Below, piece after piece: positions 12,265 to 30,085 of a stretch of DNA of 32,000 nucleotides. The stretch is from Kineococcus radiotolerans SRS30216 = ATCC BAA-149. GTDB taxonomy: Bacteria; Actinomycetota; Actinomycetes; Actinomycetales; Kineococcaceae. Within the stretch, counting starts at the first letter, position 1, and every line of letters begins with the position of its first letter. A model generated the notes under the pieces. It was not told the origin of the DNA, searched no databases, and worked only from the letters and a program-made list of their open reading frames with translations. The translations under genes and the position numbers were made by a program. The stretch covers positions 60,001-92,000 of the forward strand of contig NC_009806.1 in NCBI RefSeq assembly GCF_000017305.1, read 5' to 3'.

Positions 12265-12546
12265 ATGGTCGGCTACGACACCCACAAGGACGAGGTCCTC
12301 AAGCGCCTGCGCCGGATCGAGGGGCAGGTCCGCGGCCTGCACCGCATGGTCGAGGAGGACACCTACTGCATCGACGTCCTCACCCAGGTGTCCGCGGCCA
12401 CCAAGGCACTGCAGGCGGTGGCCCTGTCCCTCCTCGATGACCACCTAGCGCACTGCGTCGCCGACGCCGCCCGTCAAGGCGGTGAGGTCGCCGACGCCAA
12501 GGTGAAGGAAGCCTCCGACGCCATCGCCCGCCTCGTGCGTTCTTGA
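12265..12546 (+). CDS. csoR: Copper-sensing transcriptional repressor CsoR (DUF156 family)
   Basis: AGGAGG RBS. Sequence RLRRIEGQVRGLHRMVEEDTYCIDVLTQVSAATKALQAV...LDDHLAHCV carries the C-H-C Cu(I) ligand pattern (YC...HxxHC) of CsoR. Confidence 0.9.
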   Translation: MVGYDTHKDEVLKRLRRIEGQVRGLHRMVEEDTYCIDVLTQVSAATKALQAVALSLLDDHLAHCVADAARQGGEVADAKVKEASDAIARLVRS

Positions 12547-12636
12547 TCCACCACCCCTGCGCCGACACCCCCAGCGCACCCTGCACCAGACGGCACGACA
12601 CCGCTGATCTGGTCCATCCGCGAAGGAGCAATCCCG

Positions 12637-13059
12637 ATGGCTGAAGACCTCAAGCTCACCGCCGGCCCCACCGACGTTCCGGCCTCCTCCGGGTGTGCGT
12701 GCTGCGCACCCGCCGACACGACTGGCTCCGCCACCACCCCCGTCGGGTCCTCCGCTTCCGCCTCGTCCAACGAGGGGCCCAGCGAAGGGTCCAGCGGGGG
12801 ACCCAGCAAGGGAGTCGATGACGAGGGTGGCGCTGCGGTGCGTTCGTCCTACGCGGTGATTGGCATGACGTGCGGGCACTGCGTCAGCGCGGTGCGCTCC
12901 GAACTGAGTACGGTGCCGGGCGTGCGCGCGGTCGACATCGACCTCGTCGTCGGTGGCGCTACCACCGTCACTGTCACCTCGGATGCCGCACTGGAGCACG
13001 ACACCGTCGCCGGCGCCATCGACGAGGCCGGCTACGAGCTGGCTGGTCAGCGTTCTTGA
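12637..13059 (+). CDS. copZ: Heavy-metal-associated (HMA) domain copper chaperone with a long N-terminal Cys-containing extension
   Basis: GAAGGAG RBS. C-terminal ~70 aa form a ferredoxin-like HMA domain with MTCGHC. The N-terminal ~70 aa are Ser/Gly/Pro-rich and contain a GCACC motif. Confidence 0.8.
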   Translation: MAEDLKLTAGPTDVPASSGCACCAPADTTGSATTPVGSSASASSNEGPSEGSSGGPSKGVDDEGGAAVRSSYAVIGMTCGHCVSAVRSELSTVPGVRAVDIDLVVGGATTVTVTSDAALEHDTVAGAIDEAGYELAGQRS

Positions 13060-13259
13060 TCCTCCTCCCCAACCTCCCGCCGCTGCAGCCCACCTCATCC
13101 CCCGCCCGCACAGCCGTCGCCACGGGTCGTGCCGTCGCGGGCTAGGCGACATGGATTGAGTGAGCTGCCTCCCCAGTAGCGAACCGTGGCACCGAACCGT
13201 GGCACTGCCCCGTGGCACCGCACCGCAGTATCGAACTGCCCTGGATCAAGGAGATCCGC

Positions 13260-15863
13260 ATGAGTGAGCACACCACTCGCCCAACCCCAGGCGGTGACGT
13301 CGCCGCCGCTGCCTCTACCGCCGCTGCTTCCGCCGGTGCTGCCTCTACTGACGGGACCCTCGGCGCTACCTCAGCTACGCAGCAGCCCACGCCGAAGCCC
13401 ATGCAACGTCAACAGCCCAAGCAGCCGGTGGCCGAGGTGACGCCCCTGCAGGTGGTGGAACTCAACATCAGCGGCATGACGTGCGCCTCGTGCGCAGCGC
13501 GTATCGAGAAGAAGCTCAACAAGATGCCCGGGGTCGAGGCCAGCGTGAACTACGCCACCGAGAAAGCACGGGTCGCCCTGCCCGCCGGTACCGACGTCGA
13601 AGCCGCCATCAAGGTCGTGCAGGCCACCGGCTACAGCGCCGCCCTACCGCCGGCTCCCCGCCCCAGCGCAACCCCGACCCACCTGCGCAGCAACGCTGCA
13701 CATGGTGTGGAACATGGTGAGGAAGGTGGCGGCCAGCACGGCGAGCAGAACAGTGGGCACGACGGTGGGCACGACGGTGGGCACGACGGTGGACAGGACG
13801 AGGAGCACGGTGCAGGTGAGACACGGGCTCTGCGCCAGCGGCTGCTGATCTCCCTCGCCCTCAGCGTGCCGGTGGTGGTGCTGGCCATGGTGCCGGCGCT
13901 GCAGTTCACCTACTGGCAGTGGCTCTCGCTGACCCTGGCCGCACCGGTGGCGATCTGGGGGGCGTGGCCCTTCCACCGCGCAGCTGCCCTCAACGCCCGT
14001 CACGGCGCGGCCACCATGGACACCCTCATCAGCGTCGGGGTTCTCGCCGCCTTCGCGTGGTCGCTGTACGCGTTGTTCTTCGGCGGCGCCGGGATGGCCG
14101 GCATGCGGATGGCGTTCACGCTGCTGCCTGAGCGGGGCAGCGCCCACGCCGGGGCGGAGATCTACCTGGAGGTCGCCGCCGCGGTGACGGTGTTCATCCT
14201 CACCGGCCGCTATCTCGAGGCCCGCGCCAAGCGCAGCTCGGGAGCTGCGCTGCGCGCCCTGCTGCACCTGGGGGCCAAAGAGGTCACCGTTCTCCGCGAG
14301 GGGGCCGAGTCACGCATCGGCATCGAGCAGCTGGGCGTCGACGACGTCTTCGTGGTGCGGCCCGGGGAGAAGATCGCCACCGACGGCGTCGTGCTCGAAG
14401 GCTCCTCGGCCATCGACGCCAGCATGCTCACCGGTGAATCGGTGCCGGTGGAAGTCGGACCCGGCGCCGCCGTCAGCGGAGCCACGGTCAACGCCGGGGG
14501 CCGGCTGCTGGTGCGCGCCACCCGCATCGGCGCCGACACGCAGCTGGCGCAGATGGCGCGCCTGGTGCAGGACGCGCAGTCCGGGAAGGCCGCGGTGCAG
14601 CGTCTGGCGGATCGGGTGTCGGGGGTCTTCGTGCCCATCGTCATCGTGCTAGCCATCGCCACCCTGGCCGGCTGGCTGCTAGCCGGTGCCGGTGCGGAGG
14701 CGGCGTTCACCGCCGCGGTCGCGGTGCTGATCATCGCCTGCCCGTGCGCGCTGGGGCTGGCCACGCCGACCGCGCTGCTGGTCGGTACCGGGCGCGGGGC
14801 GCAGCTGGGGGTGCTCATCAAGGGCCCGCAGGTGCTGGAGTCCACCCGCCGCATCGACACCGTGGTGCTGGACAAGACCGGCACCATCACCACCGGGCAG
14901 ATGAGCCTGACCGGGGTGCACCCGGCTCCTGGAGTCGATGAGACCCAACTGCTGCGTCTGGCCGGTGCCCTGGAGCACGCCTCGGAGCACCCCATCGCCG
15001 CCGCCATCACCACCGGTGCCCGCCAACGCCTGAGCAGCGCAAACGGCAACGCAGACGGCAGCGCAAACGGCAGCGCAAACGGCAGCGTGCAACTGCCCGC
15101 GGTGACGTCTTTCGCCTCCACCGGCGGCCTCGGGGTCACCGGTGTCGTCGAAGGGCACGCCGTCATCGCTGGCCGCGCTTCCTGGCTGGCGCAGCAGTGG
15201 TCCCAGCCTCCGCCCGTGGAGCTGTCCGAAGCCGCCGCCGCCGCGGAAGGCGAGGGACGCACCGCTGTCGCGGTCGGCTGGGACGGGCAGGTTCGTGGGG
15301 TGCTGGTGGTCGCCGACACCGTCAAGACCTCCAGCGCCGTCGCGGTGGCGCAGATGCGCGAACTGGGTCTGCGCCCGGTGCTACTGACCGGTGACAACGC
15401 CCGCGCCGCCCGCGCGGTCGCCGAGCAGGTCGGCATCGACGACGTCATCGCCGAGGTCCTGCCCGCCGGCAAGCTCGACGCCATCACCGCCCTGCAGCGT
15501 CAAGGTCGGGTGGTGGCGATGGTCGGTGATGGCGTCAACGACGCCGCCGCCCTGGCCGGTGCTGACCTGGGCATCGCCATGGGTACCGGCACCGATGTGG
15601 CCATCGAAGCGTCCGACCTGACCCTGGTGCGCGCTGACCTGCTCGCTGTCGTCGACGCGCTGCGCCTGTCGCGCAGGACACTGTCCACCATCAAGGCCAA
15701 CCTGTTCTGGGCCTTCGCCTACAACCTCGCCGCCCTGCCGCTGGCGATCGCCGGGTTGCTCAACCCCCTGGTGGCCGGTGCCGCCATGGCCTTGTCCTCG
15801 ATCTTCGTGGTCACCAACAGCCTGCGCCTGCGCCGCTTCGCCCCCACCACCTCCCGCGCCTGA
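13260..15863 (+). CDS. copA: Cu(I)-translocating P1B-type ATPase
   Basis: AAGGAG RBS before ATG 13260. N-terminal HMA domain ([15 protein letters not shown]), TM CPC motif ([10 protein letters not shown]), DKTGTIT phosphorylation site, and [10 protein letters not shown] hinge. Confidence 0.92.
13752..13799. repeat. 12-bp tandem repeat (GGTGGGCACGAC, 4 units, outer ones degenerate) inside copA, encoding (GGHD)n
   Basis: Direct reading: agtgggcacgac ggtgggcacgac ggtgggcacgac ggtggacaggac. In frame, between the HMA domain and the first TM helix. Confidence 0.9.
15037..15084. repeat. 12-bp tandem repeat (GCGCAAACGGCA, 4 units, one degenerate) inside copA, encoding [16 protein letters not shown]
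   Basis: Direct reading: gcgcaaacggca acgcagacggca gcgcaaacggca gcgcaaacggca. In frame, and located in the cytoplasmic nucleotide-binding region after DKTGT. Confidence 0.9.
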
Positions 15864-16019
15864 TCCCGGCAGGTCCCGTGTGGATCAGCCCGACACCACA
15901 TCGAGCAGCCGTTCATCGAGAACCCGTTCAGGGACCAGTTCGAGTACCGGCCAAGTACCAGTGCGACGACCAAGGCGCGAAGCCACGGCACCTTCCGAAA
16001 ACTCACCGAGGGAGAAGTC

Positions 16020-16595
16020 ATGCCCGACCCACGGCACCAGCACCACCCCACCACCGCAGAGCCCACCCTCACCCACCACGCGGACATGAACCACGTCAGC
16101 GCGGGCCACAGTGGTCATGGCGGGCATGGTGCCCATGAGGGCCACGGGGGCCCCGGCTCCACGTCGTGGGCGATGGCTGCGCAGGCCACACTGCACTGCC
16201 TCACCGGCTGCGCCATCGGCGAGGTCCTCGGCATGGTCATCGGCACCAGCTTGGGCTGGCACACCGCCGCCACCGTGGCCCTGTCGATCACCTTGGCCTT
16301 CATCTTCGGCTACGCGCTGACCATGCGCGGCGTGCTCAAGGCCGGCGTCGGCTTCCGCACCGCCCTGAAAGTCGCCCTGGCCGCCGACACCATCTCCATC
16401 GCCGTCATGGAGATCATCGACAACACCGCCATGGTCGCCATCCCCGGCGCCATGCACGCCGGCATCGGCTCGTGGATCTTCTGGGCCTCACTGGCCGGCG
16501 CGCTGGCCTTGGCCTTCGTGATCACCACCCCGGTCAACCGCTGGATGATCAGCCGCGGCAAGGGCCACGCCGTGGTCCACGCCTACCACCACTGA
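16020..16595 (+). CDS. DUF4396 domain membrane protein with His-rich N-terminus
   Basis: GAGGGAGAAG RBS before the ATG. HCLTGCAIGEVLGM motif and 4 TM segments typical of DUF4396. N-terminal HQHH...HSGHGGHGAHEGHGG tract and C-terminal HAVVHAYHH. Confidence 0.75.
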   Translation: MPDPRHQHHPTTAEPTLTHHADMNHVSAGHSGHGGHGAHEGHGGPGSTSWAMAAQATLHCLTGCAIGEVLGMVIGTSLGWHTAATVALSITLAFIFGYALTMRGVLKAGVGFRTALKVALAADTISIAVMEIIDNTAMVAIPGAMHAGIGSWIFWASLAGALALAFVITTPVNRWMISRGKGHAVVHAYHH

Positions 16596-16627
16596 GCAGC
16601 ACCAGCGCCTGGGCCGGCGCTACCGGT

Positions 16628-16683
16628 TCCACGGCACAAGTTCCACGGCACAAGTTCCACGGCACAAGGTCCACGGCACAAGG
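16628..16683. repeat. Intergenic 14-bp tandem repeat, 4 copies (TCCACGGCACAAG[T/G])
   Basis: Direct reading: tccacggcacaagt x2 then tccacggcacaagg x2. It starts 33 nt after the DUF4396 stop. Confidence 0.9.
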
Positions 16684-16721
16684 TCCGGTGCTGCCTGCCC
16701 TCTCTCATCCCCGTCCCCACA

Positions 16722-16790
16722 GCCGGTGCCGGCGCCGGTGCCGGTGCCGGTGCCGGTGCCGGTGCCGGTGCCGGTGCCGGTGCCGGTGCC
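16722..16790. repeat. Intergenic hexanucleotide microsatellite (GCCGGT), about 11.5 units
   Basis: Direct reading: gccggt gccggc gccggt then continuing (gccggt)n to 16790. It ends 37 nt before the ATG of the beta-propeller lipoprotein gene. Confidence 0.95.
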
Positions 16791-16826
16791 GAGCTAAACC
16801 GACGCAGAACGAGCCGAGAAGGACTG

Positions 16827-17759
16827 ATGACTACACTCTCCCGCCCGCGAATCCGGGTCCCGCTGCGGGCCGCCACGCTCAGCGCTGCGCTCCTGCTGGC
16901 CGGTTGCTCCAGTGCCGAGCCGGCAGTTGATCCCGCCGCCGTGGAGCAGCACGGCGGCGACGTCGAGGGCGGTGAGAGTCAGCACAGTGAGGGTCAGCAC
17001 GATGGCGGTGACGCCGTCACCTTGCCCAGTGCTCACGTGCACGGCGTGGCCGTCAACCCCGCCGACGGCCAGGTACACCTGGCTACCCACGACGGGTTGT
17101 TCCGCTTCGAGGAGTCCGGTCCGGTGCGGGTGGGGCCGGTCATCGACCTGATGGGCTTCACCGTCGCCGGCCCGGACCACTTCTACGCCTCGGGCCACCC
17201 CGGTCCCGGCGTGGACCTGCCCCAGCCGGTGGGCCTGATCGAGACCACCGATGGCGGGCGCACCTGGCAGGCGCTCTCGCGGCAGGGAGAGTCGGACTTC
17301 CACGCCCTGGCCGCCTCCGCCGGCGGCGTCGTCGGCTTCGACGGCACCCTTCGCTTCAGCTCGGATGGAACGACATGGAACGTCCTGCAGACGCCCGTGA
17401 AGCCGTATGCCGTGGCCGCATCCCCTGACGGCGCGGTGCTTCTCGTCACCAGTGAGGCTGGTCCCGCCCGCTCCACCGACGCCGGCATCACCTGGTCGGT
17501 GCTTCAGGAAGCACCGCTGCTGCAGCTGGTGGACTGGGCCGACGGCGCCACTGTCGCCGGGGTGAGCCCAGAGGGGACGGTGGCGATGAGCACCGACGCA
17601 GGCGCGACGTGGAGCGTACGAGGGCGTGTCACAGGAGCACCGCAGGCGGTAGGTGCCGACCTCCAGCCTGACGGCTCGATGCGTTTGCTGGTCGTCACCG
17701 AAGAAGGCGTGCACGAGTCCCGCGACGGCGGGGCAAGCTTCAGCCCGGTTCCGTTGTAG
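16827..17759 (+). CDS. BNR/Asp-box repeat beta-propeller lipoprotein (F510_1955-like glycosylhydrolase-like family)
   Basis: GAAGGA RBS. Signal peptide with LLLAGCSS lipobox. HVHGVAVNPADGQVHLATHDGLF motif. Repeated SxDxGxTW Asp-boxes (TTDGGRTW, SSDGTTW, STDAGITW, STDAGATW, SRDGGASF). Confidence 0.75.
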   Translation: MTTLSRPRIRVPLRAATLSAALLLAGCSSAEPAVDPAAVEQHGGDVEGGESQHSEGQHDGGDAVTLPSAHVHGVAVNPADGQVHLATHDGLFRFEESGPVRVGPVIDLMGFTVAGPDHFYASGHPGPGVDLPQPVGLIETTDGGRTWQALSRQGESDFHALAASAGGVVGFDGTLRFSSDGTTWNVLQTPVKPYAVAASPDGAVLLVTSEAGPARSTDAGITWSVLQEAPLLQLVDWADGATVAGVSPEGTVAMSTDAGATWSVRGRVTGAPQAVGADLQPDGSMRLLVVTEEGVHESRDGGASFSPVPL

Positions 17760-18119
17760 GGACGAACGCGGAACGGGGACACAGTGCACCGATCAGCCAC
17801 TGTCGCCGTCGAGGCGTCGGTGAGTCGGTGGCGTCAGCCACGGCGTCCAAGACGGCGCGAGGGTGCTCAAGGAGCGGCTCAGCGACGGTCAGCTGCGCCG
17901 ACTCGCCCCTAGATCTCAAGGGGCGACAGAGACCCCAAGGCTCGTGGTGACACGTGCGTCACAGAGCTCAGCTCCGACCGAGACATGTCACACATGAGCT
18001 GACCTGCAGAAATAGCAGATACCCATGGATAACCGACCACCTGATCCTCTACATCCGCCTCACCGACCGGCAGGCCCCCGCCACCGTCTGAGCGCGCCCC
18101 TCAAGCTCACCCACACACC

Positions 18120-20724: not shown

Positions 20725-23700
20725 TCATGGCATCGCGTGCAGCTGCAGCGCGCGGACGCTGACCCCGCGCGGGCCGGTGCGGCGCACCTGCCCGGTGACC
20801 AGCAGCAGAGAGGCTCGGTAGAGCAGGTGGTGGCTGGTGGTCTCCTGCACGTCGGCGAAGACGGTGACGTCCACGCAGCCGGTGCCATCGTCCAGGGTCA
20901 GGAACACCACCCGACGCCCGGAGCGCACCGGTGGGGTCTGGGTCGCCACCCGCACGCCGGCGACGAGGACGTCGACGTCGGTGCGTACCTCCAGCAGCCG
21001 CTCGGCTGGAGTGAAGCCGCGTCGGCGCAGTTCGGGCAGGTGCGGGGTGAGGATGTGCTGCTGCAGGTCCATCCCGGTGCTCGCCAGCTCGGTGCTGACC
21101 TGCTGCTCCGGGGTCGGTGCCAGGTGACCGGCGGGGGCGCTGGCCAGGTCGAGGTCCCCCAGGGGCAGGACGAGCTGGCCGGGGTGCCAGCCGGCGAAGC
21201 GTCCTGCCGGCCGGGCTGTGGCGCGCGCCGTCGCTGGCCGGGCCGGCGCCATGGTCTGGATGGCCCGGGTCGCGGTCAGGGCGGTGCGCTGAGGGCTCGT
21301 CACGGCAGCATCCGCGGTCAAGGGCGCTGGGGAGACTCGAGGCTGCGGCAGGGACCCGCTCCCGGCGCCGACCCCGGGGGCGCGTCCCGCCTTCGACCGT
21401 GTGCTGATCTGCTGCAGGTGGGCCAGCAGGTCCCCCCGGGTCAGCACCCGCCCACTCCCCTGCCCGCTGCCGTGGCTCGAGCGGTAGGTGACCCCCGGTC
21501 GTAGCGACGCACCCAGCACGGGGTCCAGGCCGGCGAGGTCGTCGAGGGCTCCGAGGCGGGCCAGGCGGATGAGGGTGGGGCGGCGGGGGCGGGCCCGGTC
21601 GCGGAAGTCGCCGACGTCGGCGAAGGGCTGCGTGGCCACGATGCGCTCCACCTCCGCGGCGTGCAGGTCCTTGACCACGGTGAGCGGGGGGCGGATCCCC
21701 CACCGCCGCTCCCCACCGGCTGATTGGCCGGTGGGAGCCGGCAGCTCGGCACGCCAGACGTCGGTGGAGGTCTGGACGTCGACGGGCAGGATGGCGATGC
21801 CCAGGCGTCGGGCCTCGGCCACCAGCAGCCGGCGGGGGTACATGCCGGGGTCGTGCTCGAGGAGGCCGGTGAGGAACTGCACCGGGTAATGCGCCTTCAG
21901 CCACGCGCTCTGGTACGTGATCGCGGCGAACGCCGCGGCGTGGGCGCGCGCGAAGCCGAACCCGCCGTGGGCGGCGATCAGCTTCCACACCGCGTCGACG
22001 ACGTCGCGGGGGTAGCCGCGGGCGGTGGCGGCGGTGCGGAAGTCCGCCTCGACCTCGACGCGGGCGTCGGGGTCGGACAGGTGGCGGCGCCACACGTCGG
22101 CGCGGGCCAGGCCACAGCCGGTGAAGACGTCGAGGATGCGCATGACCTGCTCGTGGAAGATGACCACCCCGTGGGTCTCGGAGAGGATCGGGGTCAGGTC
22201 CGGGTGCGGTAGGCGGCGGGGGCCGCCGGTCGCGACCCAGCCGTGGTGGCCTTCCAGGAACGGGGAGATCATGTCCCCGGCCATCGGACCGGGGCGGAAC
22301 AGGGCGACGTCGATGACGAGGTCGGAGAACGCCCGGGGCTGGAACTTCCCCAGCAGTTCGCGCTGGCCGGGGGATTCGATCTGGAACACGCCGAGGGTGT
22401 GGGTGGAACGGATCAGCTCGAACGTGGCGTGGTCGTCGAGGGCGATGGCGTCCAGATCGGGCACCGCACCCGGCGCCGTGGGCTCAGCGCGAGGCGCGGC
22501 GGCAGGCGGGGCTTCGGTGGCCGGGGCCCGGTAGGCATGGACGAGGTTGGCCAGCGCAGGAAGGCCGGCGGCTGGAGCAGTTGCAGCGGTTGCGGCGGGG
22601 TTCGCCGACGCCGGAGTGACGTGAGCTGGCTGCATGTTCTCGGGTACGGCGGCGGTGCGCTCGATCTCGGTGAGGGTGTACGCGATGGCGGACTGCATCC
22701 GCACCCCGAGAACGTCGAGCTTCAGCCAGCCCATCGGGTCGATGTCGTCCTTGTCGAACTGGCTCATCGCCATGCCCTCGATCCCGCACGCCTGCACCGG
22801 AGTCCGGGTCAGCAGGGACGCGTCGGAGAGGATCACCCCGCACGGGTGCATCGACAGGTGCCGCGGTAAGCGGTCCAGGGTGGCGGTGACGTCGACGAGC
22901 AGGTCCAGCTGCCGGTGACTGCGCACCAACTCGGCGAGCTCACGCAGTTCCGGCAGTTCCGCCATCGCTTCCCGGACCCGGGAGGCGGACACCCCGCGCA
23001 GGCTGGCGGCGACTTCGTCGACGACCTCGGGTTCCACCCCCAGGGCGAGACCGGCGGCGCGGACCGCGCCGCGGGCGCGGTAGGCCTGGGTGGTGGCCAT
23101 CAGAGTGACGCGTTCGGCACCGAAGCGATCCCGGATGGCGCGGTAGATGTCGTGGCGGCGGGCGGACTCCACGTCGAGATCGATGTCGGGCAACGTCTCG
23201 CGGCGATCTGAGATGAAGCGCTCAAAAAGGAGGCCCTGGTCGAGGGGATCCACGTTGCTGACCCCGAGCAGCCACAGCAGGACGCTGCCGACGCCGGATC
23301 CGCGGGCAGTGGCGCGCACCCCGAGGCCGTGGATGAGGCGGGTCGCCTCGCTGACGGCGAGGAAGTAGGTGGCGTAGTTGAGGCGGTCGACGACGGCGAG
23401 TTCGGCCTGCACCCGCTCCTGCACCGCCCGCACCTTGGCGAGGCTCGCGCCGGGGTGGCGACGGCCGATGCCGGCGTCGGCGCGAGCGCGCAGCATGCCC
23501 AGCGCCGCGGCGTAGCCGTGCGGGTCCCCGGCGGAGGTGGCCGCGGCGTCGATTCCCAGGACCGCCGGTTCGGGCACCCGCGCCCTCCCCCACCCCAGAT
23601 CCCTTTCAAGATCCAGGCGGCAGCGCTCGGCGAGCGCGGCGGTGCGTTCCAGCAGTCCGCCGGCGTGGTCGCGACCGCGGTGCTCGACGCCGGCGGCGGT

Positions 23701-24567
23701 GGCGATCTCTCGGGCCAGGTCTTCCATCAGGTGTGGGGGTTTCAGCCAGGCCTGGGCGTTGGGCGACAACGCGTGCGCGGCGTGCAGCTCCTCCAGCCCG
23801 CGCAGGGCGGCGACGGCGTCGCCGACGTCGGCGGTGGGGACGTCACCGGGATGCAGGAGCCGGACGGCGTTGCTTAGCACGGTGGGGATGCCGACGGCGG
23901 CCGCAGCCCGCAGCACCCGGGCGGTGACGCCGACGGAGGCCGGGTGGCCTTCGCGGGTCAGGTGGCACACAACCTCCACCGCGAGCGCCGAGGCGGGCAG
24001 GAGCCGGGTCCAGGCCTCCCAGGCGTCGATGACCTCGCGCATGCGCCCGGTAGCGAGAGCCCGGCCGAGGTCGGTGCCGGGTCCGAGAAGGACGGTGGCG
24101 GCGGGGTCGTTGCCGGCGGCTGGGGCGAGGGCGGCGACCAGGTCAGCGGGAGTGAGGCTGGCTGTCGCGGCACTGGCGCTAGGGGTGGTGTTGGTGCGGT
24201 GGGCGGCGGTAGTGGCTCGGCACAGCGCGGCCCAGCCGGCCCCGTGGGTGTGGCCATGGGCGAGAACCACCACCCGCCCCGAACCAGCGCTGAAGCCGGA
24301 ACCAGTGGTGCCCGGTTTCGAGGTCCGGGTGGAGTCGCGCCGGGTGCTGGAATGCAGGGCGAGGTCTACACCGGCGATGGGGTCAATACCGGCGAAGCGG
24401 CAGGCGCTGACGTGCTGGATCAGCCCGGCCATCTGGCCGCGATCGGTAAGGGCCAGAGCGGAGGCCCCGGCGCTCGCGGCCGCCGCGGCCAAGGTGGCGG
24501 GGTCAGTGGTGCCGTGGTGGTGGGAGTGCCCGCTGGCGACGTGCAGGTGGGTGAACGGGGTGCTCAC
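20725..24567 (-). CDS. dnaE2: Error-prone DNA polymerase III alpha-subunit paralogue DnaE2 (ImuC)
   Basis: N-terminal PHP domain (FTHLHVASGHSHHHGTTDP). Pol III alpha core motifs (PDIDLDVES, HPCGVILS, KLDVLGV, GVFQIESPGQ, ALFRPGP). C-terminal OB-fold region. SOS box upstream of the operon. The size and lack of a tau-binding tail fit DnaE2 rather than DnaE1. Confidence 0.88.
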   Translation of the reverse strand: MSTPFTHLHVASGHSHHHGTTDPATLAAAAASAGASALALTDRGQMAGLIQHVSACRFAGIDPIAGVDLALHSSTRRDSTRTSKPGTTGSGFSAGSGRVVVLAHGHTHGAGWAALCRATTAAHRTNTTPSASAATASLTPADLVAALAPAAGNDPAATVLLGPGTDLGRALATGRMREVIDAWEAWTRLLPASALAVEVVCHLTREGHPASVGVTARVLRAAAAVGIPTVLSNAVRLLHPGDVPTADVGDAVAALRGLEELHAAHALSPNAQAWLKPPHLMEDLAREIATAAGVEHRGRDHAGGLLERTAALAERCRLDLERDLGWGRARVPEPAVLGIDAAATSAGDPHGYAAALGMLRARADAGIGRRHPGASLAKVRAVQERVQAELAVVDRLNYATYFLAVSEATRLIHGLGVRATARGSGVGSVLLWLLGVSNVDPLDQGLLFERFISDRRETLPDIDLDVESARRHDIYRAIRDRFGAERVTLMATTQAYRARGAVRAAGLALGVEPEVVDEVAASLRGVSASRVREAMAELPELRELAELVRSHRQLDLLVDVTATLDRLPRHLSMHPCGVILSDASLLTRTPVQACGIEGMAMSQFDKDDIDPMGWLKLDVLGVRMQSAIAYTLTEIERTAAVPENMQPAHVTPASANPAATAATAPAAGLPALANLVHAYRAPATEAPPAAAPRAEPTAPGAVPDLDAIALDDHATFELIRSTHTLGVFQIESPGQRELLGKFQPRAFSDLVIDVALFRPGPMAGDMISPFLEGHHGWVATGGPRRLPHPDLTPILSETHGVVIFHEQVMRILDVFTGCGLARADVWRRHLSDPDARVEVEADFRTAATARGYPRDVVDAVWKLIAAHGGFGFARAHAAAFAAITYQSAWLKAHYPVQFLTGLLEHDPGMYPRRLLVAEARRLGIAILPVDVQTSTDVWRAELPAPTGQSAGGERRWGIRPPLTVVKDLHAAEVERIVATQPFADVGDFRDRARPRRPTLIRLARLGALDDLAGLDPVLGASLRPGVTYRSSHGSGQGSGRVLTRGDLLAHLQQISTRSKAGRAPGVGAGSGSLPQPRVSPAPLTADAAVTSPQRTALTATRAIQTMAPARPATARATARPAGRFAGWHPGQLVLPLGDLDLASAPAGHLAPTPEQQVSTELASTGMDLQQHILTPHLPELRRRGFTPAERLLEVRTDVDVLVAGVRVATQTPPVRSGRRVVFLTLDDGTGCVDVTVFADVQETTSHHLLYRASLLLVTGQVRRTGPRGVSVRALQLHAMP

Positions 24568-24573
24568 GGCGGT

Positions 24574-25107
24574 TCACGGCTCCTCGGCGCTGAGGACGTG
24601 CCAATCGTCGCCGGCGCGCAACACGTCGACGACGATCGTGGCCGGTTCGAGCCCTGGGTGCTCCGGCTCGAGGTCATCGAGGTCTTGAGACCCCTCGTCG
24701 AAATCGTCGAAGGCGTCTGTGTCGAAGCCACCCCCGAAGTCACCTTTGTACCCGCCGCGTGCCCCGTCCCCGCCGGGCTGTCCCGGCTGCATGTCGGTGG
24801 GGACCTTGCGCAGGGTCGGAGCGGGCGGAGGGACCTCGGCGTGCAGGCGCCAGCGTTCCTGATCGACCAGGGCGAGGGCCTGGTCGAGGTCGAGGCGGCG
24901 TTGGGAGCGCCACCAGGGGATGACCGGGCGTTCGTGCCAGCGCACGGCGTGGGTGACCGGCAGCAGCAGGCCGCGCCAGCGCACGGCGGTGGGGCGGCCC
25001 ACGTCGACCACCACGATCACGTCAGAGGAGACGTCGGAGACCGGTCGCTCGGTGTGCCCTTCCCAGCTGTCGTCGTCGGGGGCGTACTCGCCAGCGGTAG
25101 CGGGCAT
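24574..25107 (-). CDS. Small Trp/Arg-rich protein with acidic tail, first gene of the SOS-regulated dnaE2 operon (possibly ImuB C-terminal-like / DUF6504-like)
   Basis: Its stop lies 6 nt before the dnaE2 GTG. The ATG at 25105-25107 is 21 nt from a perfect LexA box. The core VVVDVGRPTAVRWRGLLLPVTHAVRWHERPVIPWW recalls (from memory) the Trp-rich C-terminal module of ImuB-type proteins, but there is no Y-family polymerase-like N-terminal domain. Confidence 0.55.
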   Translation of the reverse strand: MPATAGEYAPDDDSWEGHTERPVSDVSSDVIVVVDVGRPTAVRWRGLLLPVTHAVRWHERPVIPWWRSQRRLDLDQALALVDQERWRLHAEVPPPAPTLRKVPTDMQPGQPGGDGARGGYKGDFGGGFDTDAFDDFDEGSQDLDDLEPEHPGLEPATIVVDVLRAGDDWHVLSAEEP

Positions 25108-25127
25108 GAGCCTCCCCCTCAGCTAGA

Positions 25128-25143
25128 TCGAACACCTGTTCGA
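25128..25143. promoter_or_regulatory. LexA SOS box (TCGAACACCTGTTCGA)
   Basis: Perfect match to the actinobacterial/Gram-positive Cheo-box consensus TCGAAC-N4-GTTCGA. It lies in the divergent intergenic region between the dnaE2 operon and the XRE-like gene. Confidence 0.9.
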
Positions 25144-25254: not shown

Positions 25255-25953
25255 GTGGCGCCCATGTCGAACCTGCTGGCGCACCTGCCGCTCGGCCCCC
25301 AGAGCATCGGGGAGGACCCGCCTCAGGATGGGGAAGCCATCGACCGGCGGTCCCTGCCCTACCGGCTCAACCAGGCCTTGAACACCTTCCAGATCGGCTG
25401 CTTGCGCGGCGCAGAAGGCTCTCCCGAACCACACCGCCTCATCCACGCTTCCTTCATCGCCTACCTGGCGCGCCAGCTCGGTGCGACGATCACCGGCGAG
25501 GAGCTGCACGAGATCCGTGAGGGGCGGCAGCTGGAGGCCGACCCGCGGCAGCTGCAGCTGGTCGCGGACGTGCTGTGCGTACCGGGCTGGGTGCTCACCG
25601 AGACACCGCCACCGGGACGGCGCGTCGTCCTGGCCGCCGGGTCCGGTGACTGGCGGGCGACGCTAGTCAGTGACGACGGCGGCGCGCGCCTGAGCACCGC
25701 CGCCGTGCGGGAACTGACCCAGTGGATCAGGAGCTTGCCCAAGGAAGAGGTGAGCAACTCCCTGCTCCCGGTCGTCCTGCAGAGACTTTCCCAGGGACCG
25801 GGCGTGGAGGGGCCCAGCAGCGACAAGCAGGCTCCGGAGTCGCCTCAGGCGTTCTTCGACGACGTCGTGAGGCTGGTGCAGGCGCACGCGCCGCGAGCGC
25901 TCGCCGACGACCATTCGGCGGTCGACGAGTCCGCGGCTCACCCCCTTCCGTGA
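25255..25953 (+). CDS. XRE-like helix-turn-helix protein (hypothetical regulator)
   Basis: The pattern RLNQALNTF...FIAYLARQLGATITGEELHEIREGRQLEADPRQLQLVADVLCVPGWVLTE mirrors actinobacterial XRE-type regulators (LN.LF....S..EVA.....G..IS..YL..LR.G.r.NP....L.ALA.FFGV...YF). High GC3. The start is GTG 25255 or ATG 25264. Confidence 0.5.
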   Translation: MAPMSNLLAHLPLGPQSIGEDPPQDGEAIDRRSLPYRLNQALNTFQIGCLRGAEGSPEPHRLIHASFIAYLARQLGATITGEELHEIREGRQLEADPRQLQLVADVLCVPGWVLTETPPPGRRVVLAAGSGDWRATLVSDDGGARLSTAAVRELTQWIRSLPKEEVSNSLLPVVLQRLSQGPGVEGPSSDKQAPESPQAFFDDVVRLVQAHAPRALADDHSAVDESAAHPLP

Positions 25954-25959
25954 GTGCGA

Positions 25960-26200
25960 AGTCGCCCAGGCGGTCTGGGAGTGGCATCTCGTAGGACGTT
26001 GGTACCAGTCCTGCATCAGGACACCAGTGACACCGTCGGTCTTGGTGGTAACACCTTTCAAGCCCCCGGATCTGCGGGTGAAGGGCGTTCGTGCCTGCAA
26101 GCGATGCACCTTCGACTTGCCGTTCGAGTAGTCGATAACCGGGCCGACACCCAGTTCGCGATGAGCGGGTCGTTCGATCACCGCATCGGCCACCGCGGGG
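25960..26200 (-). pseudogene. Possible C-terminal remnant of an IS110-family transposase (Transposase_20-like)
   Basis: The minus-strand translation RELGVGPVIDYSNGKSKVHRLQARTPFTRRSGGLKGV can be aligned by eye to the IS110 C-terminal consensus (laaylGLvPrqrqSGgkvrrgrisKrGnrrLR). There is no N-terminal part and no start codon. GC is locally lower. This is a weak, eye-only match. Confidence 0.25.
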
Positions 26201-26227
26201 GCGCCAGAGCGCCTAGGGTTGCCATCC

Positions 26228-28756
26228 ATGAGCGGCGTTGACACATACCGTGGCATCGCCTACCAGCACGCGCAGGCGGTCCTGTGCGCGCTCGACGTCC
26301 TAGAGAGTGACGCATTCGCGGCGATCCGGGTCGAGGGTGTCGAAGACGTAATCGACATCGAGCTGCTCGACGCGCACGGGAGGGTCGCAATCGGCAAGCA
26401 GGCGAAGGTCCGGTCCGACGACTACACGTGGGCCAAGGCCGACCTGATCGGGCTGCTCCGTCGGTGGGCGGCGGTCGACGCGCCGAATGGGGCATCGTTC
26501 CAGTTCGTGACTGACGGGCGCCTCGGGCCCTCCGGCGAGGAGGTCAGGGACGCCCTGACGCAGGCGGCGGTGGGCGATCGTGGCCCGCTGGCGGAGCTAC
26601 TGGGGGACGCACCCGACGGAGACACCGTCCGCAAGGCAGCCCGCGCCACGGTGGTGCAGGACCCGGGCGGTCTCGGAGCACTTCTCGCCAGGGCCGAGCG
26701 ACAGGTCATCGCGCTGCTCCCGACCGCAAGGTCGGCGGCCGACGCGATGGAGCAAGCGAAGTCCGCTGTCGATGCACTGTTCCGGTTGCTGCTGGACCGC
26801 GCGTGCCGGCCTGACTCAGCAGACCGCGTGGCCTCCCGGCACGAGATCTGCGTAGCGCTCGGGATCCCTCCGAGCGCGGCGGCCGTGGTGCCGTGGGCTG
26901 GCCAGATGCGTGATCAGTACCTCGCGGCCGTGGCCGCACAGGGTTTCGCCGCGGCGGTGCCCACACGACTTCGATTGGAGGTGTCGTCCGGTACCGCCGA
27001 AGAGGTGGGCATGGACGCGCTATTGGGCGACGGGCTGGCGCCGGCTGCCGTCGCTGGGCCGACCGGCGCCGGGAAGTCCACCGCGGCCCGCGAACTCCGG
27101 GCCATGGGCGCCGCGCAGGGCCGAGTCGTGGTCGTGGCGCACGCGGAAACGTACATCCCCGGCCGCATCGACGCGCTCACCGCTGACGCCGTGGCCGACG
27201 TCTTGGGCCGTGACGTCCCGACGCTGACCGGCCGGCAAGTCCTTGCCGAGCCGGGCACGGTCGTCGTGATCGACGGTGTCTCGGAGGTCCCCGAGCCGGT
27301 TCGGGATGCCCTCGCCGAGGATCTCCGGACGCCGGTCGCGACCGGGCGGGGGGCGCGCCTTGTGCTGCTAGGGCGTGGGCTCGCCGCTGTCCGCTCAGTC
27401 CTTCCGGCATCATCCACACCATCCCGGTTCCGCCTCGAGCCGTTCGGGCGGGAGCGTCGGAGGGCCCTCGCCGAGATCGCCCTTAGGGGCGGCGACGACG
27501 CAGTAGAGGCCGATGTCGTCCTCGCGCAGGCGGAGGCATCGCTCGGCGACGCAGCCGGGAACCCCATGTTGCTCGAGATGACGCTTGGCCTCATCGTGTC
27601 CGGGGTCGCGTTCGACGACCGGGCGGCGGTGTACGGAGCGGTCCTCGATCAGCTCGGGGAAAAGGCGGGCGTCGCCGGGCTCGGGATTGCGCAGGTCCTG
27701 CTCGGTGCGTGCTTCGCGAGACTCCTCGATGAGGACCGCCGCTACGCCGATCCCTACACGTGGCGTCGCTATTTGATGGAGGAAGCGAAAGCGCAGGCCG
27801 ACCTGATCGGACCCATCGACGCAAGCGCGATCGACGACGCCGCCCGCAGGTCGGGGCTGATCGTTCGGCTCGGCCATGCCGAAACCGTCGCCGCGGTCCA
27901 CGACTCCTTTGCCGACTACCTCGCAGGGCTGGCCCTGGCGCGCGGAGCCGTCGCATTCCCCACCGACGTGAAACCCGGCGACGAGGAGCGACTGGCGTTC
28001 GCAGCACAGGTTGGCGGGATGGATCGCACGCTCGCCGAAGCCGTAGCGGAGCGCCTTCCATTCGCGCTACCGCGGTTCGGTGCCCTCGATCGGCGCCGCC
28101 CAGGAGCCGATGCACCGGACGAGGTGTCTGCGGTCCTGCGCGCTGTCGTCCCGGAGGGTGTGGCAGCTGGTGTTGACCTGTGGCGCCACACCGACGGTCG
28201 CGTCGTCGCGTTCAGCCGACCGGACAGCGGTGGCTGGCTCTCCGACATGGATGCACGCGCGGCGCGCTCCTCTAGGCCTTGGGTGGTTGGGGAAGCCGGA
28301 CCTGTCGACCTCGCAGTCCGGCTGTGGCGTCAGTGGCTCCTCATGCAACTCGCAGGCAACAACGGCGTCGGTCGGCCGCACCCTAGGACCGCGGAGGAAG
28401 CTCGCGATGCTGTGGCAGCGCACGTAGCTGAGACCGCCGCGGAGACCGACCGGCTCGTTCGCGTGGCGGTGCGAGCCGAGCACCGCGCTGTCGTTGCGGC
28501 CGAGATCGGCCCGATGGGCCTCACCGGACAGGTACACCCTGCGCGGGACGGCCTGTTGCGTCGCGGTCCCGACTGGTCAGTCGTCTACACCCCAACCGAG
28601 GGAATCGACATATCCATTGCTGATGAGCCTTTCGTCGGCGACGACTACCGTTCGCGCGCGGCTCTCGACTCGATGATTGACAGCCCCGCATCGGCTAAGG
28701 CAGCGGAACGAGTAAGGAAGGCGATCAACAAGATGGCCGGAGGGCGGTGGCTGTGA
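26228..28756 (+). CDS. STAND/NACHT-type P-loop NTPase with an N-terminal Cap4/DUF4297-like PD-(D/E)xK nuclease domain and an unassigned C-terminal region (Avs/bNACHT-like defence candidate)
   Basis: - N-terminus: TYRGIAYQHAQAVL...IRVEGVEDVIDIEL...GKQAKV, i.e. a GxxYQ motif plus an E/D...QxK PD-(D/E)xK pattern, as in DUF4297/Cap4 nuclease domains.
- Walker A: GPTGAGKST (27056-27082).
- Walker B: TVVVIDGVSE.
- NACHT-type motifs: GNPMLLEM and HDSFADYLAG.
- The last ~270 aa have no repeat or domain I recognise.
- Start at ATG 26228 (TTG 26219 is possible). The stop overlaps the next gene's ATG (TGATG). Confidence 0.7.
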   Translation: MSGVDTYRGIAYQHAQAVLCALDVLESDAFAAIRVEGVEDVIDIELLDAHGRVAIGKQAKVRSDDYTWAKADLIGLLRRWAAVDAPNGASFQFVTDGRLGPSGEEVRDALTQAAVGDRGPLAELLGDAPDGDTVRKAARATVVQDPGGLGALLARAERQVIALLPTARSAADAMEQAKSAVDALFRLLLDRACRPDSADRVASRHEICVALGIPPSAAAVVPWAGQMRDQYLAAVAAQGFAAAVPTRLRLEVSSGTAEEVGMDALLGDGLAPAAVAGPTGAGKSTAARELRAMGAAQGRVVVVAHAETYIPGRIDALTADAVADVLGRDVPTLTGRQVLAEPGTVVVIDGVSEVPEPVRDALAEDLRTPVATGRGARLVLLGRGLAAVRSVLPASSTPSRFRLEPFGRERRRALAEIALRGGDDAVEADVVLAQAEASLGDAAGNPMLLEMTLGLIVSGVAFDDRAAVYGAVLDQLGEKAGVAGLGIAQVLLGACFARLLDEDRRYADPYTWRRYLMEEAKAQADLIGPIDASAIDDAARRSGLIVRLGHAETVAAVHDSFADYLAGLALARGAVAFPTDVKPGDEERLAFAAQVGGMDRTLAEAVAERLPFALPRFGALDRRRPGADAPDEVSAVLRAVVPEGVAAGVDLWRHTDGRVVAFSRPDSGGWLSDMDARAARSSRPWVVGEAGPVDLAVRLWRQWLLMQLAGNNGVGRPHPRTAEEARDAVAAHVAETAAETDRLVRVAVRAEHRAVVAAEIGPMGLTGQVHPARDGLLRRGPDWSVVYTPTEGIDISIADEPFVGDDYRSRAALDSMIDSPASAKAAERVRKAINKMAGGRWL

Positions 28757-29862
28757 TGCCGACACCCGACAACGAGGCGGCGCTGTGGCATGCGGTGGCA
28801 GAGATGGCAGCGGTCTGGGGAGACCTGCCGGTGGTTCGCCGCTTCGCCGAGCAGCTACCGCGTAACGCGCCCCAGCGCAGGCTCGGGCTCCCAGGCCTGC
28901 TTCAGCACGTCACAGCCTGCGGCGGGATGGTCGCAAGCCACCCGATGAGGCTAGGCACGAACGTGCCCCCGATGCTCTCCCTTGTGCAGGGCCTCGTCGC
29001 GCCGCCCGTCGGTCCGGAAGTTCTAGATCCGTGGCTTGAGGACGCGAGCCGCGTCGAGGGGGCCCACCGCGTCACCGTCGCATGGTTGCGGTCTCGGCTC
29101 CCCGGATACCCGCAGCTCCCGGCCCCGCAGCTCGCGCAGGGAACCCCCCTAACGACCGATGAGTTCACGTACCGACTCCCCTGGACTCGGCAGGAGTTTG
29201 CGGCCGGGTTCCAGTTCCAGAACCCGCCTTTTGAACCGCTGGAAATTCTCGGGGCCACAAAGAATGAGGCCGTACGTGCGGGCGATACGACCCGCCGGCT
29301 CGCACTGGCACTTCTTGAGACAGCGCCGTGGCGTCAGTTGCGCGACGCAGAGCGAGCGCTCTTGCCACCCCACCGCGCAGAGCTCCGCTCGACCCGTCAA
29401 GCGATTACCCAGGCGACTCGGCCAGCACTCATCGACGCCCACGAGCCGGACCGCGCTCTCCCGCGGGACGCCTACCGCCAACAGGTGGTCGTCAAGGCTG
29501 TAGGCGCCCTGTCTGGGCCCGCCCGTGAGTACGCGGACGCTTTCGACGCTGCAGACCGTCTCATCGAGCTTGTCGCTAGCGACGTCTTCGGTCAGCTTGC
29601 CATCTACGGCACCATCGGCCTTGCTGGCGTCAGCGAGCTCGACGTCCGCGGCGGTAACCATGGCAAGGTGGAGTTCACCTTCCAGGACACAGTGCACCCT
29701 GACCCTGGGACGGTCGTCTGGCTGGACGACCCGCTGTTCTCGGACGCAGTGCGCGTGACCGGCCTCAACTACAGCGGCGACCAAATCCGCGGCACACGGG
29801 CCCGGGTAACAGGCCAAGTGCTGGGCGGGACGGCGGGCGTGTTGCCCCGACCCAAACCGTGA
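28756..29862 (+). CDS. Hypothetical 368-aa protein translationally coupled to the nuclease-NACHT gene; no recognisable domain
   Basis: ATG 28756 shares its A with the upstream TGA (an in-frame GTG at 28747 is also possible). High GC3 across the whole ORF. No TM segment, signal peptide, P-loop or catalytic motif recognised. The C-terminal ~90 aa look beta-rich (KVEFTFQDTVHPDPGTVVWLDD...VRVTGLNYSG). Confidence 0.6.
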   Translation: MPTPDNEAALWHAVAEMAAVWGDLPVVRRFAEQLPRNAPQRRLGLPGLLQHVTACGGMVASHPMRLGTNVPPMLSLVQGLVAPPVGPEVLDPWLEDASRVEGAHRVTVAWLRSRLPGYPQLPAPQLAQGTPLTTDEFTYRLPWTRQEFAAGFQFQNPPFEPLEILGATKNEAVRAGDTTRRLALALLETAPWRQLRDAERALLPPHRAELRSTRQAITQATRPALIDAHEPDRALPRDAYRQQVVVKAVGALSGPAREYADAFDAADRLIELVASDVFGQLAIYGTIGLAGVSELDVRGGNHGKVEFTFQDTVHPDPGTVVWLDDPLFSDAVRVTGLNYSGDQIRGTRARVTGQVLGGTAGVLPRPKP

Positions 29863-30085
29863 CGACGCGGTCCCCGAACAACCTGAAGCTAGTACAAGTC
29901 AAGCTGGCGGAGCACCTCCGGCCTCGGGAATGCTCGAAAGACGGACCTGAACAACCCTGCGGCCTAGGCCACACCGCGCGCGACGTCACGCCCATGACGG
30001 GCTGTGTGCGCCGTCGTTGCGGCTGACACCCGCTCCATTCTGCGACTGTCACCGATGTCCTACGACATGACAAACCTGGTGGCCT

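Follow-up and report, generated by a model that had tools for sequence, protein, structure and literature searches.

Two adjacent genes of Kineococcus radiotolerans SRS30216, Krad_4601 and Krad_4602 (here gene 1 and gene 2), are best read as a mobile two-gene anti-phage (or anti-mobile-element) system of the Avs/bNACHT type, in which the gene 2 product completes the sensor/autoinhibitory module of a nuclease-NACHT protein encoded by gene 1. We give this reading a probability of roughly 0.55. By analogy with characterised relatives, it is likely that the pair is a defence system of the Avs/bNACHT kind, while the role of gene 2 as one part of a split sensor is put forward tentatively. Both genes lie on the forward strand of the 32,000-nt stretch that was analysed (positions 60,001 to 92,000 of contig NC_009806.1; hereafter the window), and all coordinates below are those of the window. 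The longest record with both genes, of 182,572 bp, is probably the linear plasmid pKRAD01.

Gene 1 (whose locus tag we infer to be Krad_4601; WP_012001962.1 / ABS06060.1) occupies 26228..28756 (+) as an open reading frame (ORF) with an ATG start and encodes 842 aa. Gene 2 (Krad_4602; WP_012001961.1 / ABS06061.1) follows at 28756..29862 (+), likewise as an ATG ORF, and encodes 368 aa. Both products are 100% identical to the K. radiotolerans database proteins. The junction (28739..28758, +) reads CTG-TGATG-CCG, with the TGA of gene 1 at 28754-28756 and the ATG of gene 2 at 28756-28758, which overlap as TGATG (28754-28758); a GGAGGG Shine-Dalgarno sequence lies at 28739-28744, within the end of gene 1. 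A TTG codon at 26219, upstream of the gene 1 ATG, is an improbable start codon, because the homologues start at a conserved MSGVDT. An earlier note on this DNA, made from the sequence alone, had described the two ORFs and their overlap, and direct reading bears it out; each motif that it quoted for gene 1 is found in the translation at the place claimed, and its positions for the Walker A Lys codon (27074-27076) and for EDVID (26342-26356) are right.

Both are genuine genes and not chance ORFs, given the numbers of homologues (n=104 for gene 1, n=74 for gene 2), the confidence of the AlphaFold2 (AF2) models and the invariant residues of the motifs. The models have mean predicted local distance difference test (pLDDT) scores of 89.2 for gene 1 and 93.4 for gene 2, the latter with a predicted template modelling score (pTM) of 0.92. 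The G+C content at third codon positions (GC3) of the pair is 0.77-0.79, versus 0.85-0.89 in five flanking genes. This matches the rarer codons that the earlier note had seen in gene 1, and is consistent with horizontal acquisition.

Co-inheritance of the two genes

Gene 1 and gene 2 are a strictly co-inherited unit across Actinomycetota. A genome-wide scan with the gene-1 family gave 47 loci, 44 with a near-full-length gene 1 and three with fragments. A gene 2 homologue stands directly downstream on the same strand in 43 of the 44 near-full-length loci, and in the one exception (L021) the contig stops 110 nt past gene 1. In the reverse direction, 20 metagenome loci were reached via gene 2, of which 17 have at least about 700 nt of upstream DNA; the gene-1 C-terminus is immediately upstream of gene 2 in 16 of these 17. 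The earlier note had made its proposal depend on the two genes being conserved together elsewhere, and they are, in both directions. Hosts include Streptomyces, Kitasatospora, Actinoplanes, Amycolatopsis, Nocardia, Mycobacterium, Frankia, Microbacterium, Arthrobacter, Nocardioides, Jiangella and others, and the pair is also present in metagenome-assembled genomes of Acidimicrobiales and Solirubrobacterales, with identity falling to 28%.

The spacing of the two genes is variable. They overlap (-13 to -1 nt) in about one quarter of the loci, and are separated by 10-89 nt in the rest, with all but one of these gaps at most 64 nt. From these distances, the pair is always an operon and not always translationally coupled: the coupling claimed in the earlier note holds here and for roughly one locus in four, and fails for those with gaps. 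Pairwise distance matrices of gene 2 and each gene-1 module are correlated with r of at least 0.90, which indicates co-divergence without partner exchange. Neither fusions nor effector swapping were found among the gene-1 and gene-2 homologues retrieved; two gene-1 homologues of 995 and 1037 aa that could be taken for fusions are really N-terminal over-calls of the start.

Some lineages retain only parts of gene 1. The three fragments cover residues 10-110 in Nocardia sp. CA-128927 (L046), 317-684 in Streptomyces sp. NPDC006602 (L047) and 538-589 in S. vastus (L048), and in S. antimicrobicus (L024) the gene-1 matches are scattered across 5.6 kb (8001-13665), which suggests that the system has decayed or been disrupted by insertions in certain lineages.

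Domain structure of gene 1

Judged from sequence profiles and the structure model, the N-terminus of gene 1 (residues 1-215; 26228..26872, +) is a Cap4/DUF4297-like PD-(D/E)xK nuclease domain, with catalysis as a prediction. In the AF2 model, the nuclease core has an alpha-beta-beta-beta-alpha-beta arrangement up to about residue 100, with strands at residues 32-35, 44-47, 53-60 and 90-95 and helices on the flanks, and is followed by a helical extension. This region contains YRGIAYQ (residues 7-13), VEGVEDVIDIEL (residues 35-46) and GKQAKV (residues 56-61). The predicted active site (26354..26407, +) consists of D43 and E45 followed by Q58-x-K60, with E36 and D40 just upstream. All six residues are invariant or near-invariant: D43, E45, Q58 and K60 are invariant in 46 gene-1 homologues, and E36, D40, D43 and Q58 in a 31-sequence alignment of the N-domain.

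The profile matches of the nuclease domain are clearer for the family than for its K. radiotolerans member. Gene 1 itself matches Pfam PF14130 at E 0.19 (12.4 bits, below the cut-off of 26.2), the LmuA profile PDLC03848 at E 0.003 and NF042945 (DUF4297_antiphage) at E 0.14. Among the 46 homologues, the PADLOC LmuA profile matches 38 (best 2.6e-9), HamA/DUF1837 matches 14, and Pfam Cap4_nuclease matches 11 at E ≤0.01. The assignment to Cap4/DUF4297 in the earlier note is therefore below threshold in PF14130 for gene 1 itself and found at family level in its relatives; support for it comes from the family profiles and from the modelled fold with its invariant, predicted catalytic residues. A profile of the N-domain (215 residues), compared with the PDB, matched chain 9n00_A (1523 aa; E 0.0019), and AbpA (8zue) more weakly. 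The deposited name of 9n00_A is only “AAA family ATPase”, and the chain is probably the Cap4-STAND protein SeAvs7 (STAND, signal transduction ATPases with numerous domains). In the alignment to it, GxxYQ falls on GxxYQ and Q-x-K on Q-C-K.

The middle of gene 1 is assigned, on its motifs and modelled fold, as a NACHT-type STAND NTPase, a relative of animal NLR receptors. The nucleotide-binding domain (NBD; residues 263-405; 27014..27442, +) contains a Walker A motif, GPTGAGKST (residues 277-285; 27056-27082, +), and a Walker B motif, VVVIDGVSE (residues 345-353; 27260-27286, +), the latter of the NACHT-like DG..E type. G280, G282, K283, T285, D349, G350, E353 and R383 (the sensor-1 Arg) are invariant in the 46 homologues. 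It is followed by helical domain 1 (HD1), a winged-helix domain (WHD) and HD2-like helices, as placed by the AF2 secondary structure (residues 406-642; 27443..28153, +). HD1 carries GNPMLLEM (residues 444-451), in which GNPMLL is a GxP-type motif, and the WHD carries P-x-HDSFADYLAG (27899-27916, +; HDSFADYLAG is residues 558-567). The sequence HxSFxE/D(F/Y)LA (HxSFQEFLAA) is the NACHT signature of NLR sequences. N445 of the GNP motif and H558, D559, A562 and D563 of the WHD are invariant in the same homologues.

When the AF2 model of gene 1 was searched with Foldseek, the top PDB match was Avs3 bound to terminase (8dgc_A, E 4e-12), and the next were NLRC4, NOD2 and NLRP3 (E 1e-9 to 1e-7), with alignments over 450-540 columns at E 2e-9 to 3e-8. 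PF05729 NACHT matches 19 of the 46 homologues (best 6.9e-9), nSTAND_NTPase5 matches 13 and AAA_16 matches 36. In the NTPase region of gene 1 itself, the only matches are to AAA_16, AAA_18 and AAA_30, all sub-threshold, so that a search for PF05729, which the earlier note had suggested, succeeds for part of the relatives and not for gene 1. Its recognition of a NACHT-type STAND NTPase agrees with the invariant motifs, the NLR-like fold and the NACHT matches of the family.

About 270 aa follow the WHD: some 70 residues of helices, and then a repeat-free alpha/beta domain of 200 residues (residues 643-842; 28154..28753, +), whose last two residues, W841-L842, are invariant. No other module of gene 1 diversifies as fast as this C-terminal domain, a sensor-like pattern. 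Its column entropy is 2.24-2.37 bits, compared with 1.40 in the Cap4 core, 1.61 in the NBD and 1.62 in the WHD, and its median identity over the 44 loci is 30%, compared with 45% for the Cap4 domain and 41% for the NTPase. The domain has no match in Pfam, repeat families included, and its profile has no match in the PDB. The short tail free of repeats that the earlier note had described is confirmed by the AF2 model together with the absence of Pfam repeats. Homology of the C-terminal domain to the partner protein was considered and rejected (hhalign probability 0.1%).

The partner protein

In the AF2 model, gene 2 consists of a helical domain (residues 1-284) and a small beta-barrel (residues 285-358), whose six strands span residues 287-356. 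The protein has no match in Pfam, PADLOC or NCBIfam, which confirms against these collections the view of the earlier note that it contains no recognisable domain, and its Foldseek search against the PDB and BFVD gave nothing at E<0.001. No catalytic motif is evident, no transmembrane segment is present, and no enzyme is a structural neighbour of it in the PDB or BFVD. The family was collected with a hidden Markov model search of 1.84 billion representatives, which gave 278 relatives at 50% identity clustering; among the best 150 of these 278 (124-416 aa), there are no fusions or other architectures. The calculated isoelectric point (pI) is 6.3, and the mass is 40 kDa.

The most conserved part of the partner comprises residues 93-165 (29032..29250, +; entropy 1.24 bits), which form a helix and then a loop rich in Pro and aromatic residues, AHRxTVAWLRSRLPGYPxLPAPQL. 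W110, R112, R114, Y118, P119, P124, W143 and P158 are invariant in the family, and the segment is a candidate docking surface. A second part (29506..29829, +) combines a conserved long helix, residues 251-284 (GPAREYADAFDAAD...SDVFGQL), with the variable barrel. Entropy is 1.06 bits for this helix, 2.03 bits for the barrel and 2.34 bits for the segment of residues 57-92. Conserved Arg residues are found at R36, R112, R114, R207, R237 and R241. The median identity of gene 2 over the 44 loci is 38%.

Two structural resemblances of gene 2 were noted. In both the PDB and BFVD, the barrel (residues 285-358; 29608-29829) repeatedly aligns over short stretches, without significance (Foldseek E 0.003-1), with the barrels of phage baseplate-hub, gp27/VgrG and tail-tip (J) proteins; an alignment with the N-terminal barrel of HerA is weak and likewise non-significant. 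The alignments could reflect a general resemblance among small barrels or hint at phage mimicry, and are a lead rather than a finding. The gene 2 profile weakly matches the YmcA/RicA helical bundle in the PDB (E 0.002, residues 169-279). Kinship to YmcA/RicA was set aside as generic helical similarity, which probably accounts for the NCBI label “YlbF family regulator” on one gene 2 homologue.

Surroundings of the pair in other genomes

The surroundings of the pair have the signature of accessory cargo on mobile elements, moving together with defence genes. In Streptomyces sp. WMMC1477 (L075:3524-9670, near the chromosome end), it comes directly after TnsB-like (Mu-transpos_C), TniB and TniQ genes and is followed by a second TniQ gene and two DDE transposases, which suggests that a Tn7-like transposon carries it as cargo. 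The homologue closest to the K. radiotolerans pair (78% identity) is on a Logan contig from SRR28401867 (L076:163-8675), where the order is a NERD protein, the pair, a NOV_C/DUF3883 protein, a 228-aa unknown protein, a tyrosine integrase and an HTH_17 excisionase; this looks like an integrative element carrying several candidate defence genes. Another locus is an element like the actinomycete integrative conjugative elements (AICE-like), with TraB/FtsK, GntR, NUDIX and insertion sequence (IS) elements, and in a further one the pair adjoins an IS element. In Kitasatospora papulosa (L050), the pair lies 4 kb from the chromosome end beside DUF4365 and an AAA_15/21 ATPase, and in Sinomonas gamaensis (L074) it lies beside an AAA_15/21 ATPase and an IS605 remnant.

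Neighbours were counted over 145 predicted proteins within 4.5 kb of the pair in 22 loci; these are counts only, with no enrichment statistic. The commonest Pfam matches are Phage_integrase (7), Replic_Relax (4), rve (3), Transposase_20 (3) and AAA_21 (3), and pSAM2 RepSA occurs once. PADLOC matches at E<=1e-10 include a type I methyltransferase, a type IV restriction enzyme, PDC-S48, HEC-06, PD-T4-6, PD-T4-7 and IetS. The earlier note had placed the pair in a defence islet; most of what it cited from the window for this was wrong (see below), and a context of mobile elements and defence genes is seen around the homologous pairs. The ATPase of K. papulosa and S. gamaensis is an observation of its own: it has about 600 aa, is of the AAA_15/AAA_21 (OLD/Gabija/PARIS) type, and lies upstream of the pair in these two unrelated hosts (L050:7331-9199 and L074:7020-8825), which may reflect a recurrent association or coincidental clustering in defence islands.

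Comparison with known systems

The closest known counterparts are the Cap4-STAND proteins Avs3 and Avs7 (Gao et al. 2022; Lee et al. 2026), which have a Cap4-like nuclease, a STAND NTPase and a C-terminal recognition region in the same order as gene 1. They are single genes of 1500-2000 aa with large TPR-like sensors, whereas gene 1 has 842 aa, a repeat-free tail of 200 aa, NACHT-type signatures in its NTPase, and a dedicated, co-inherited partner gene of 368 aa. Avs1-21 are delimited by a large, usually TPR-like C-terminal sensor of at least 400 aa, and gene 1 falls outside this definition with about 270 aa after the WHD. In the resting state, Cap4-STAND proteins bind ADP in a closed form, in which the NBD and the C-lobe of the sensor sequester Cap4; a trigger opens the protein, ATP drives tetramerisation, and the assembled Cap4 domains cut double-stranded DNA (dsDNA) (PMC13581612). 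Such tetramerisation of Cap4 for dsDNA cleavage has been described for both SeAvs3 and SeAvs7, and in SeAvs7 the sensor C-lobe sequesters Cap4 and EF-Tu is part of the complex (PMC13581612). By analogy, the mechanism expected for gene 1 is similar (trigger binding, ATP-driven oligomerisation, Cap4 assembly and dsDNA cleavage), and SeAvs7 further resembles the pair in that a second protein, host EF-Tu, is incorporated into the complex.

A short tail is not in itself unusual. In the survey of Lee et al. 2026, tails of at least 400 aa were present in only 34,990 of 178,641 proteins of defence-associated STAND clades, and the analysis omitted those with tails below 400 aa (about 80%). A short, rapidly diversifying C-terminal domain, “SNaCT”, is known from the bNACHT01 clade (Kibby et al. 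preprint). Gene 1 resembles bNACHT01 in its NACHT module, its N-terminal effector and its short, repeat-free, fast-diversifying tail, a pattern measured here in gene 1. The earlier note had regarded this tail as atypical for a bacterial NACHT protein, and the SNaCT class and the prevalence of short STAND tails contradict it. What is unusual about the pair is the strictly conserved partner, not the tail: bNACHT01 is a single-gene system, whereas the operon partner is present here in 43/44 loci (16/17 in reverse). This pairing is distinctive because bNACHT genes are rarely in operons, and such operons are poorly conserved; about 25% of actinobacteria encode NACHT proteins (Kibby et al. preprint).

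Other systems share single elements with the pair. The nuclease-NACHT protein bNACHT25, for which a D48A nuclease mutant has been described (Kibby preprint), also depends on a second protein for sensing. Phage sensing by bNACHT25 needs host DnaJ, a housekeeping chaperone encoded elsewhere, unlike the orphan partner here, which is dedicated to gene 1 and transferred with it. Lamassu LmuA, AbpA and Hachiman HamA have nucleases of the same superfamily as the N-domain of gene 1, but act with separate partners, an SMC protein (LmuB) or a helicase (HamB, AbpB), whereas the gene 1 nuclease is fused to the NACHT module, and neither an SMC nor a helicase gene accompanies it. Membership in Lamassu was rejected, as the operon has no SMC gene and the resemblance is confined to the LmuA-like nuclease domain. 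Membership in MADS, a system that requires each of MAD6, MAD7 and MAD8 (Maestri et al. preprint), was rejected as well: the mad8 match is at the level of the P-loop only (gene 1 residues 273-327 against profile positions 30-75 of 314), and mad6 and mad7 are missing.

No catalogued system in PADLOC-DB v2.0.0 or NCBIfam 20.0 covers both proteins, and the gene-1 family has domain-level matches only, in agreement with the suggestion of the earlier note that the system is uncatalogued. We found no paper naming Krad_4601, Krad_4602 or their accessions, and the pair is neither among the six Actinobacterial systems of Mordret et al. nor in the nuclease-NTPase survey. It is probably an undescribed two-protein variant of NACHT/Avs-like anti-virus defence.

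The short-tailed STAND proteins that the survey of Lee et al. 2026 omitted are the majority. The pair suggests that recognition or autoinhibition can be partly outsourced to a separate, strictly co-inherited protein of orphan fold. Its confirmation would bring a two-component design into the NLR-like immunity of bacteria, extending the recruitment of EF-Tu by Avs7 and of DnaJ by bNACHT25, and would offer a compact system (88 + 40 kDa) for control of an NLR in trans. Defence in Actinomycetota is little explored, and phage resistance there matters for industrial strains and for phage therapy.

Proposed mechanism and alternatives

At rest, the NACHT NTPase of gene 1 would be closed and ADP-bound, with H558 touching the nucleotide and the Cap4-like nuclease kept inactive. 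A cue from infection would open the NTPase, ATP binding would drive oligomerisation, and the Cap4 domains would thereby be united as an active dsDNA nuclease (D43, E45, Q58-x-K60). With its DNA degraded, the phage would stop replicating, and the cell would probably be sacrificed (abortive infection). We infer this pathway from SeAvs3 and SeAvs7 because all elements that the Cap4-STAND pathway requires are conserved in gene 1. Gene 2 would be a dedicated, stoichiometric and constitutive subunit that provides in trans what Avs sensors (at least 400 aa) provide in cis, presumably through physical interaction with gene 1, and would form with the fast-evolving C-terminal domain a composite module for trigger binding and autoinhibition. 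The combined length of the C-terminal domain (24 kDa; 222 aa by one boundary) and the partner (40 kDa; 368 aa) is about 590 residues, the typical size of an Avs sensor.

Several observations weigh against this proposal. Overall, median identity is higher in gene 2 (38%) than in the gene 1 C-terminal domain (30%), and this conservation would suit a core or regulatory subunit equally well, since a pure sensor is expected to diversify at least as fast. The mirror-tree partial correlations, in which the conserved cores of gene 2 track the NTPase (partial r 0.47-0.58) versus about 0 for the C-terminal domain, are weak and confounded by saturation, and were not used. The Cap4 call for gene 1 itself is sub-threshold in Pfam and relies on family-level and structural evidence. 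Some loci lie among housekeeping genes without defence neighbours, as in Amycolatopsis, where the pair comes after nrdAB, and in M. senriense. Finally, the pair is in no phage, prophage or plasmid record of the collections searched: gene 2 had no tblastn match in INPHARED phages or PLSDB plasmids and was also unmatched in IMG/VR, and megablast of the pair against PLSDB gave no near-identical DNA.

The leading alternative, which we consider appreciably less probable than the reading above, is that gene 2 is a safety catch, an antitoxin-like inhibitor or “guardee” that restrains gene 1. If gene 2 were lost, modified or displaced by a phage factor, or if host translation were shut off, gene 1 would be freed, oligomerise and cut DNA, and its C-terminal domain would be either the only true sensor or a monitor of gene 2. 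The order of the genes and their tight coupling (overlaps of 1-13 nt in about one quarter of the loci) would secure co-production, like that of toxin-antitoxin pairs, but antitoxins are usually small, unstable and encoded first, whereas gene 2 is a well-folded 40-kDa protein (pLDDT 93) and is encoded second. Its two highly conserved cores (1.06 and 1.24 bits), and its better overall conservation than that of the gene 1 C-terminal domain, would also suit an inhibitor, and the plasmid-like, integrative conjugative and transposon backbones of the pair are ones in which addiction-like behaviour is useful. The small-tailed gene 1 may, in addition, be without the intramolecular C-lobe that sequesters Cap4 in SeAvs7 (PMC13581612). 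On the other hand, validated single-chain bNACHT proteins with short tails, such as bNACHT01, stay off without a partner.

It is unlikely that gene 2 is a guardee or decoy in the stricter sense, i.e., a co-transferred protein that keeps gene 1 in check and is itself the target of phages, with its perturbation sensed by gene 1, making the operon a prokaryotic NLR guard pair. Its variable helix (residues 57-92) and its barrel have a faint likeness to tail-hub and tail-tip barrels of phages. Such a pair would parallel the guard and integrated-decoy logic of plant NLRs, and would be unlike every characterised Avs or bNACHT protein; in each of these the trigger is bound either by the protein itself or via housekeeping host factors.

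A function of gene 2 as a second effector or enhancer (targeting DNA or membranes, or delivering substrate as a scaffold), switched on by the NACHT oligomer, appears less probable still. Bacterial and fungal NLR-like platforms often activate separate effectors, as in the CARD-NLR/gasdermin systems and the fungal NWD2/HET-S pair, and gene 2 has several conserved Arg residues and a small OB-like/HAS-like barrel with weak matches to the HerA barrel. However, gene 1 already bears an intact, invariant effector domain, gene 2 has a pI near neutral and is without the catalytic motif, transmembrane segment or enzyme-like neighbour of an effector, and the family shows no effector swapping.

Equally improbable is a non-immune role, in maintenance or competition of mobile elements (addiction, entry exclusion) or as a DNA-damage-linked nuclease co-regulated with dnaE2: the pair adjoins dnaE2, about 1.1 kb from a perfect LexA box, on what we take to be plasmid pKRAD01, and integrases, relaxases and transposases dominate its neighbours elsewhere, but the LexA box belongs to the divergent dnaE2 operon and has no counterpart upstream of gene 1 in 53 homologous loci, dnaE2 is next to the pair in none of the other loci examined, defence genes are themselves typically carried on mobile elements, and every Cap4-STAND or nuclease-NACHT protein that has been characterised acts against phages (PMC13581612; Kibby preprint).

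Surroundings of the pair in the window

Within the window, the pair is flanked by the dnaE2 operon and a gene for an FAD-monooxygenase. The former is an SOS-mutasome-like cassette (20725-25143, -), with a dnaE2 gene of 1280 aa that has PHP, DNA_pol3_alpha and HHH_6 domains, and appears to be plasmid-borne. Ahead of dnaE2, on the same strand, is an ORF of 177 aa that weakly matches DUF6504 and is possibly ImuA'-like; no imuB-like gene adjoins the cassette. The divergent promoter region contains a perfect actinobacterial LexA box, TCGAACACCTGTTCGA, at 25128-25143, which places it 21-36 nt upstream of position 25107, where the 177-aa/dnaE2 operon starts on the - strand. The SOS box to which the earlier note had referred is therefore real and belongs to dnaE2, not to the pair; with this position and the lack of a box at the 53 homologous loci, SOS regulation of the pair was rejected. 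A second LexA-like site at 26112-26127, with two mismatches, is at chance level (0.73 expected per window; 22 of 100 shuffles had at least two sites).

Other features proposed around the pair were not supported. The possible transposase scar and the neighbouring helix-turn-helix gene of the earlier note correspond to ORFs at 25663-26256 (-), 25954-26241 (+) and 25255-25953 (+), none of which has a Pfam match even at E<=1. A 29-nt inverted repeat (arms 25982-26010 and 30044-30072) was considered as the ends of a cassette and discarded, as an inverted repeat at least as good arose in 58 of 60 dinucleotide-approximating shuffles. The ORF at 25255-25953 (+), between the LexA box and gene 1, has 232 aa (alternatively called 229 aa) and a gene-like GC3 of 0.88; it has no match in Pfam, PADLOC or NCBIfam, and no homologue beside any other copy of the pair. 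Its transcription runs away from the SOS box, so that it may be regulated by LexA.

Further upstream, positions 900-17800 of the window hold a copper and heavy-metal homeostasis cluster, which fits an accessory, plasmid-like region. Its genes encode a cytochrome c assembly protein (909-2051, -), a DUF3105 protein (2996-3697, -), signal peptidase II (5231-5785), VanY (6769-7509), an acyltransferase_3 protein (8880-10121), a DUF305 protein (10974-11831), a P-type ATPase with an HMA domain (13212-15863) and a DUF4396 protein (16020-16595).

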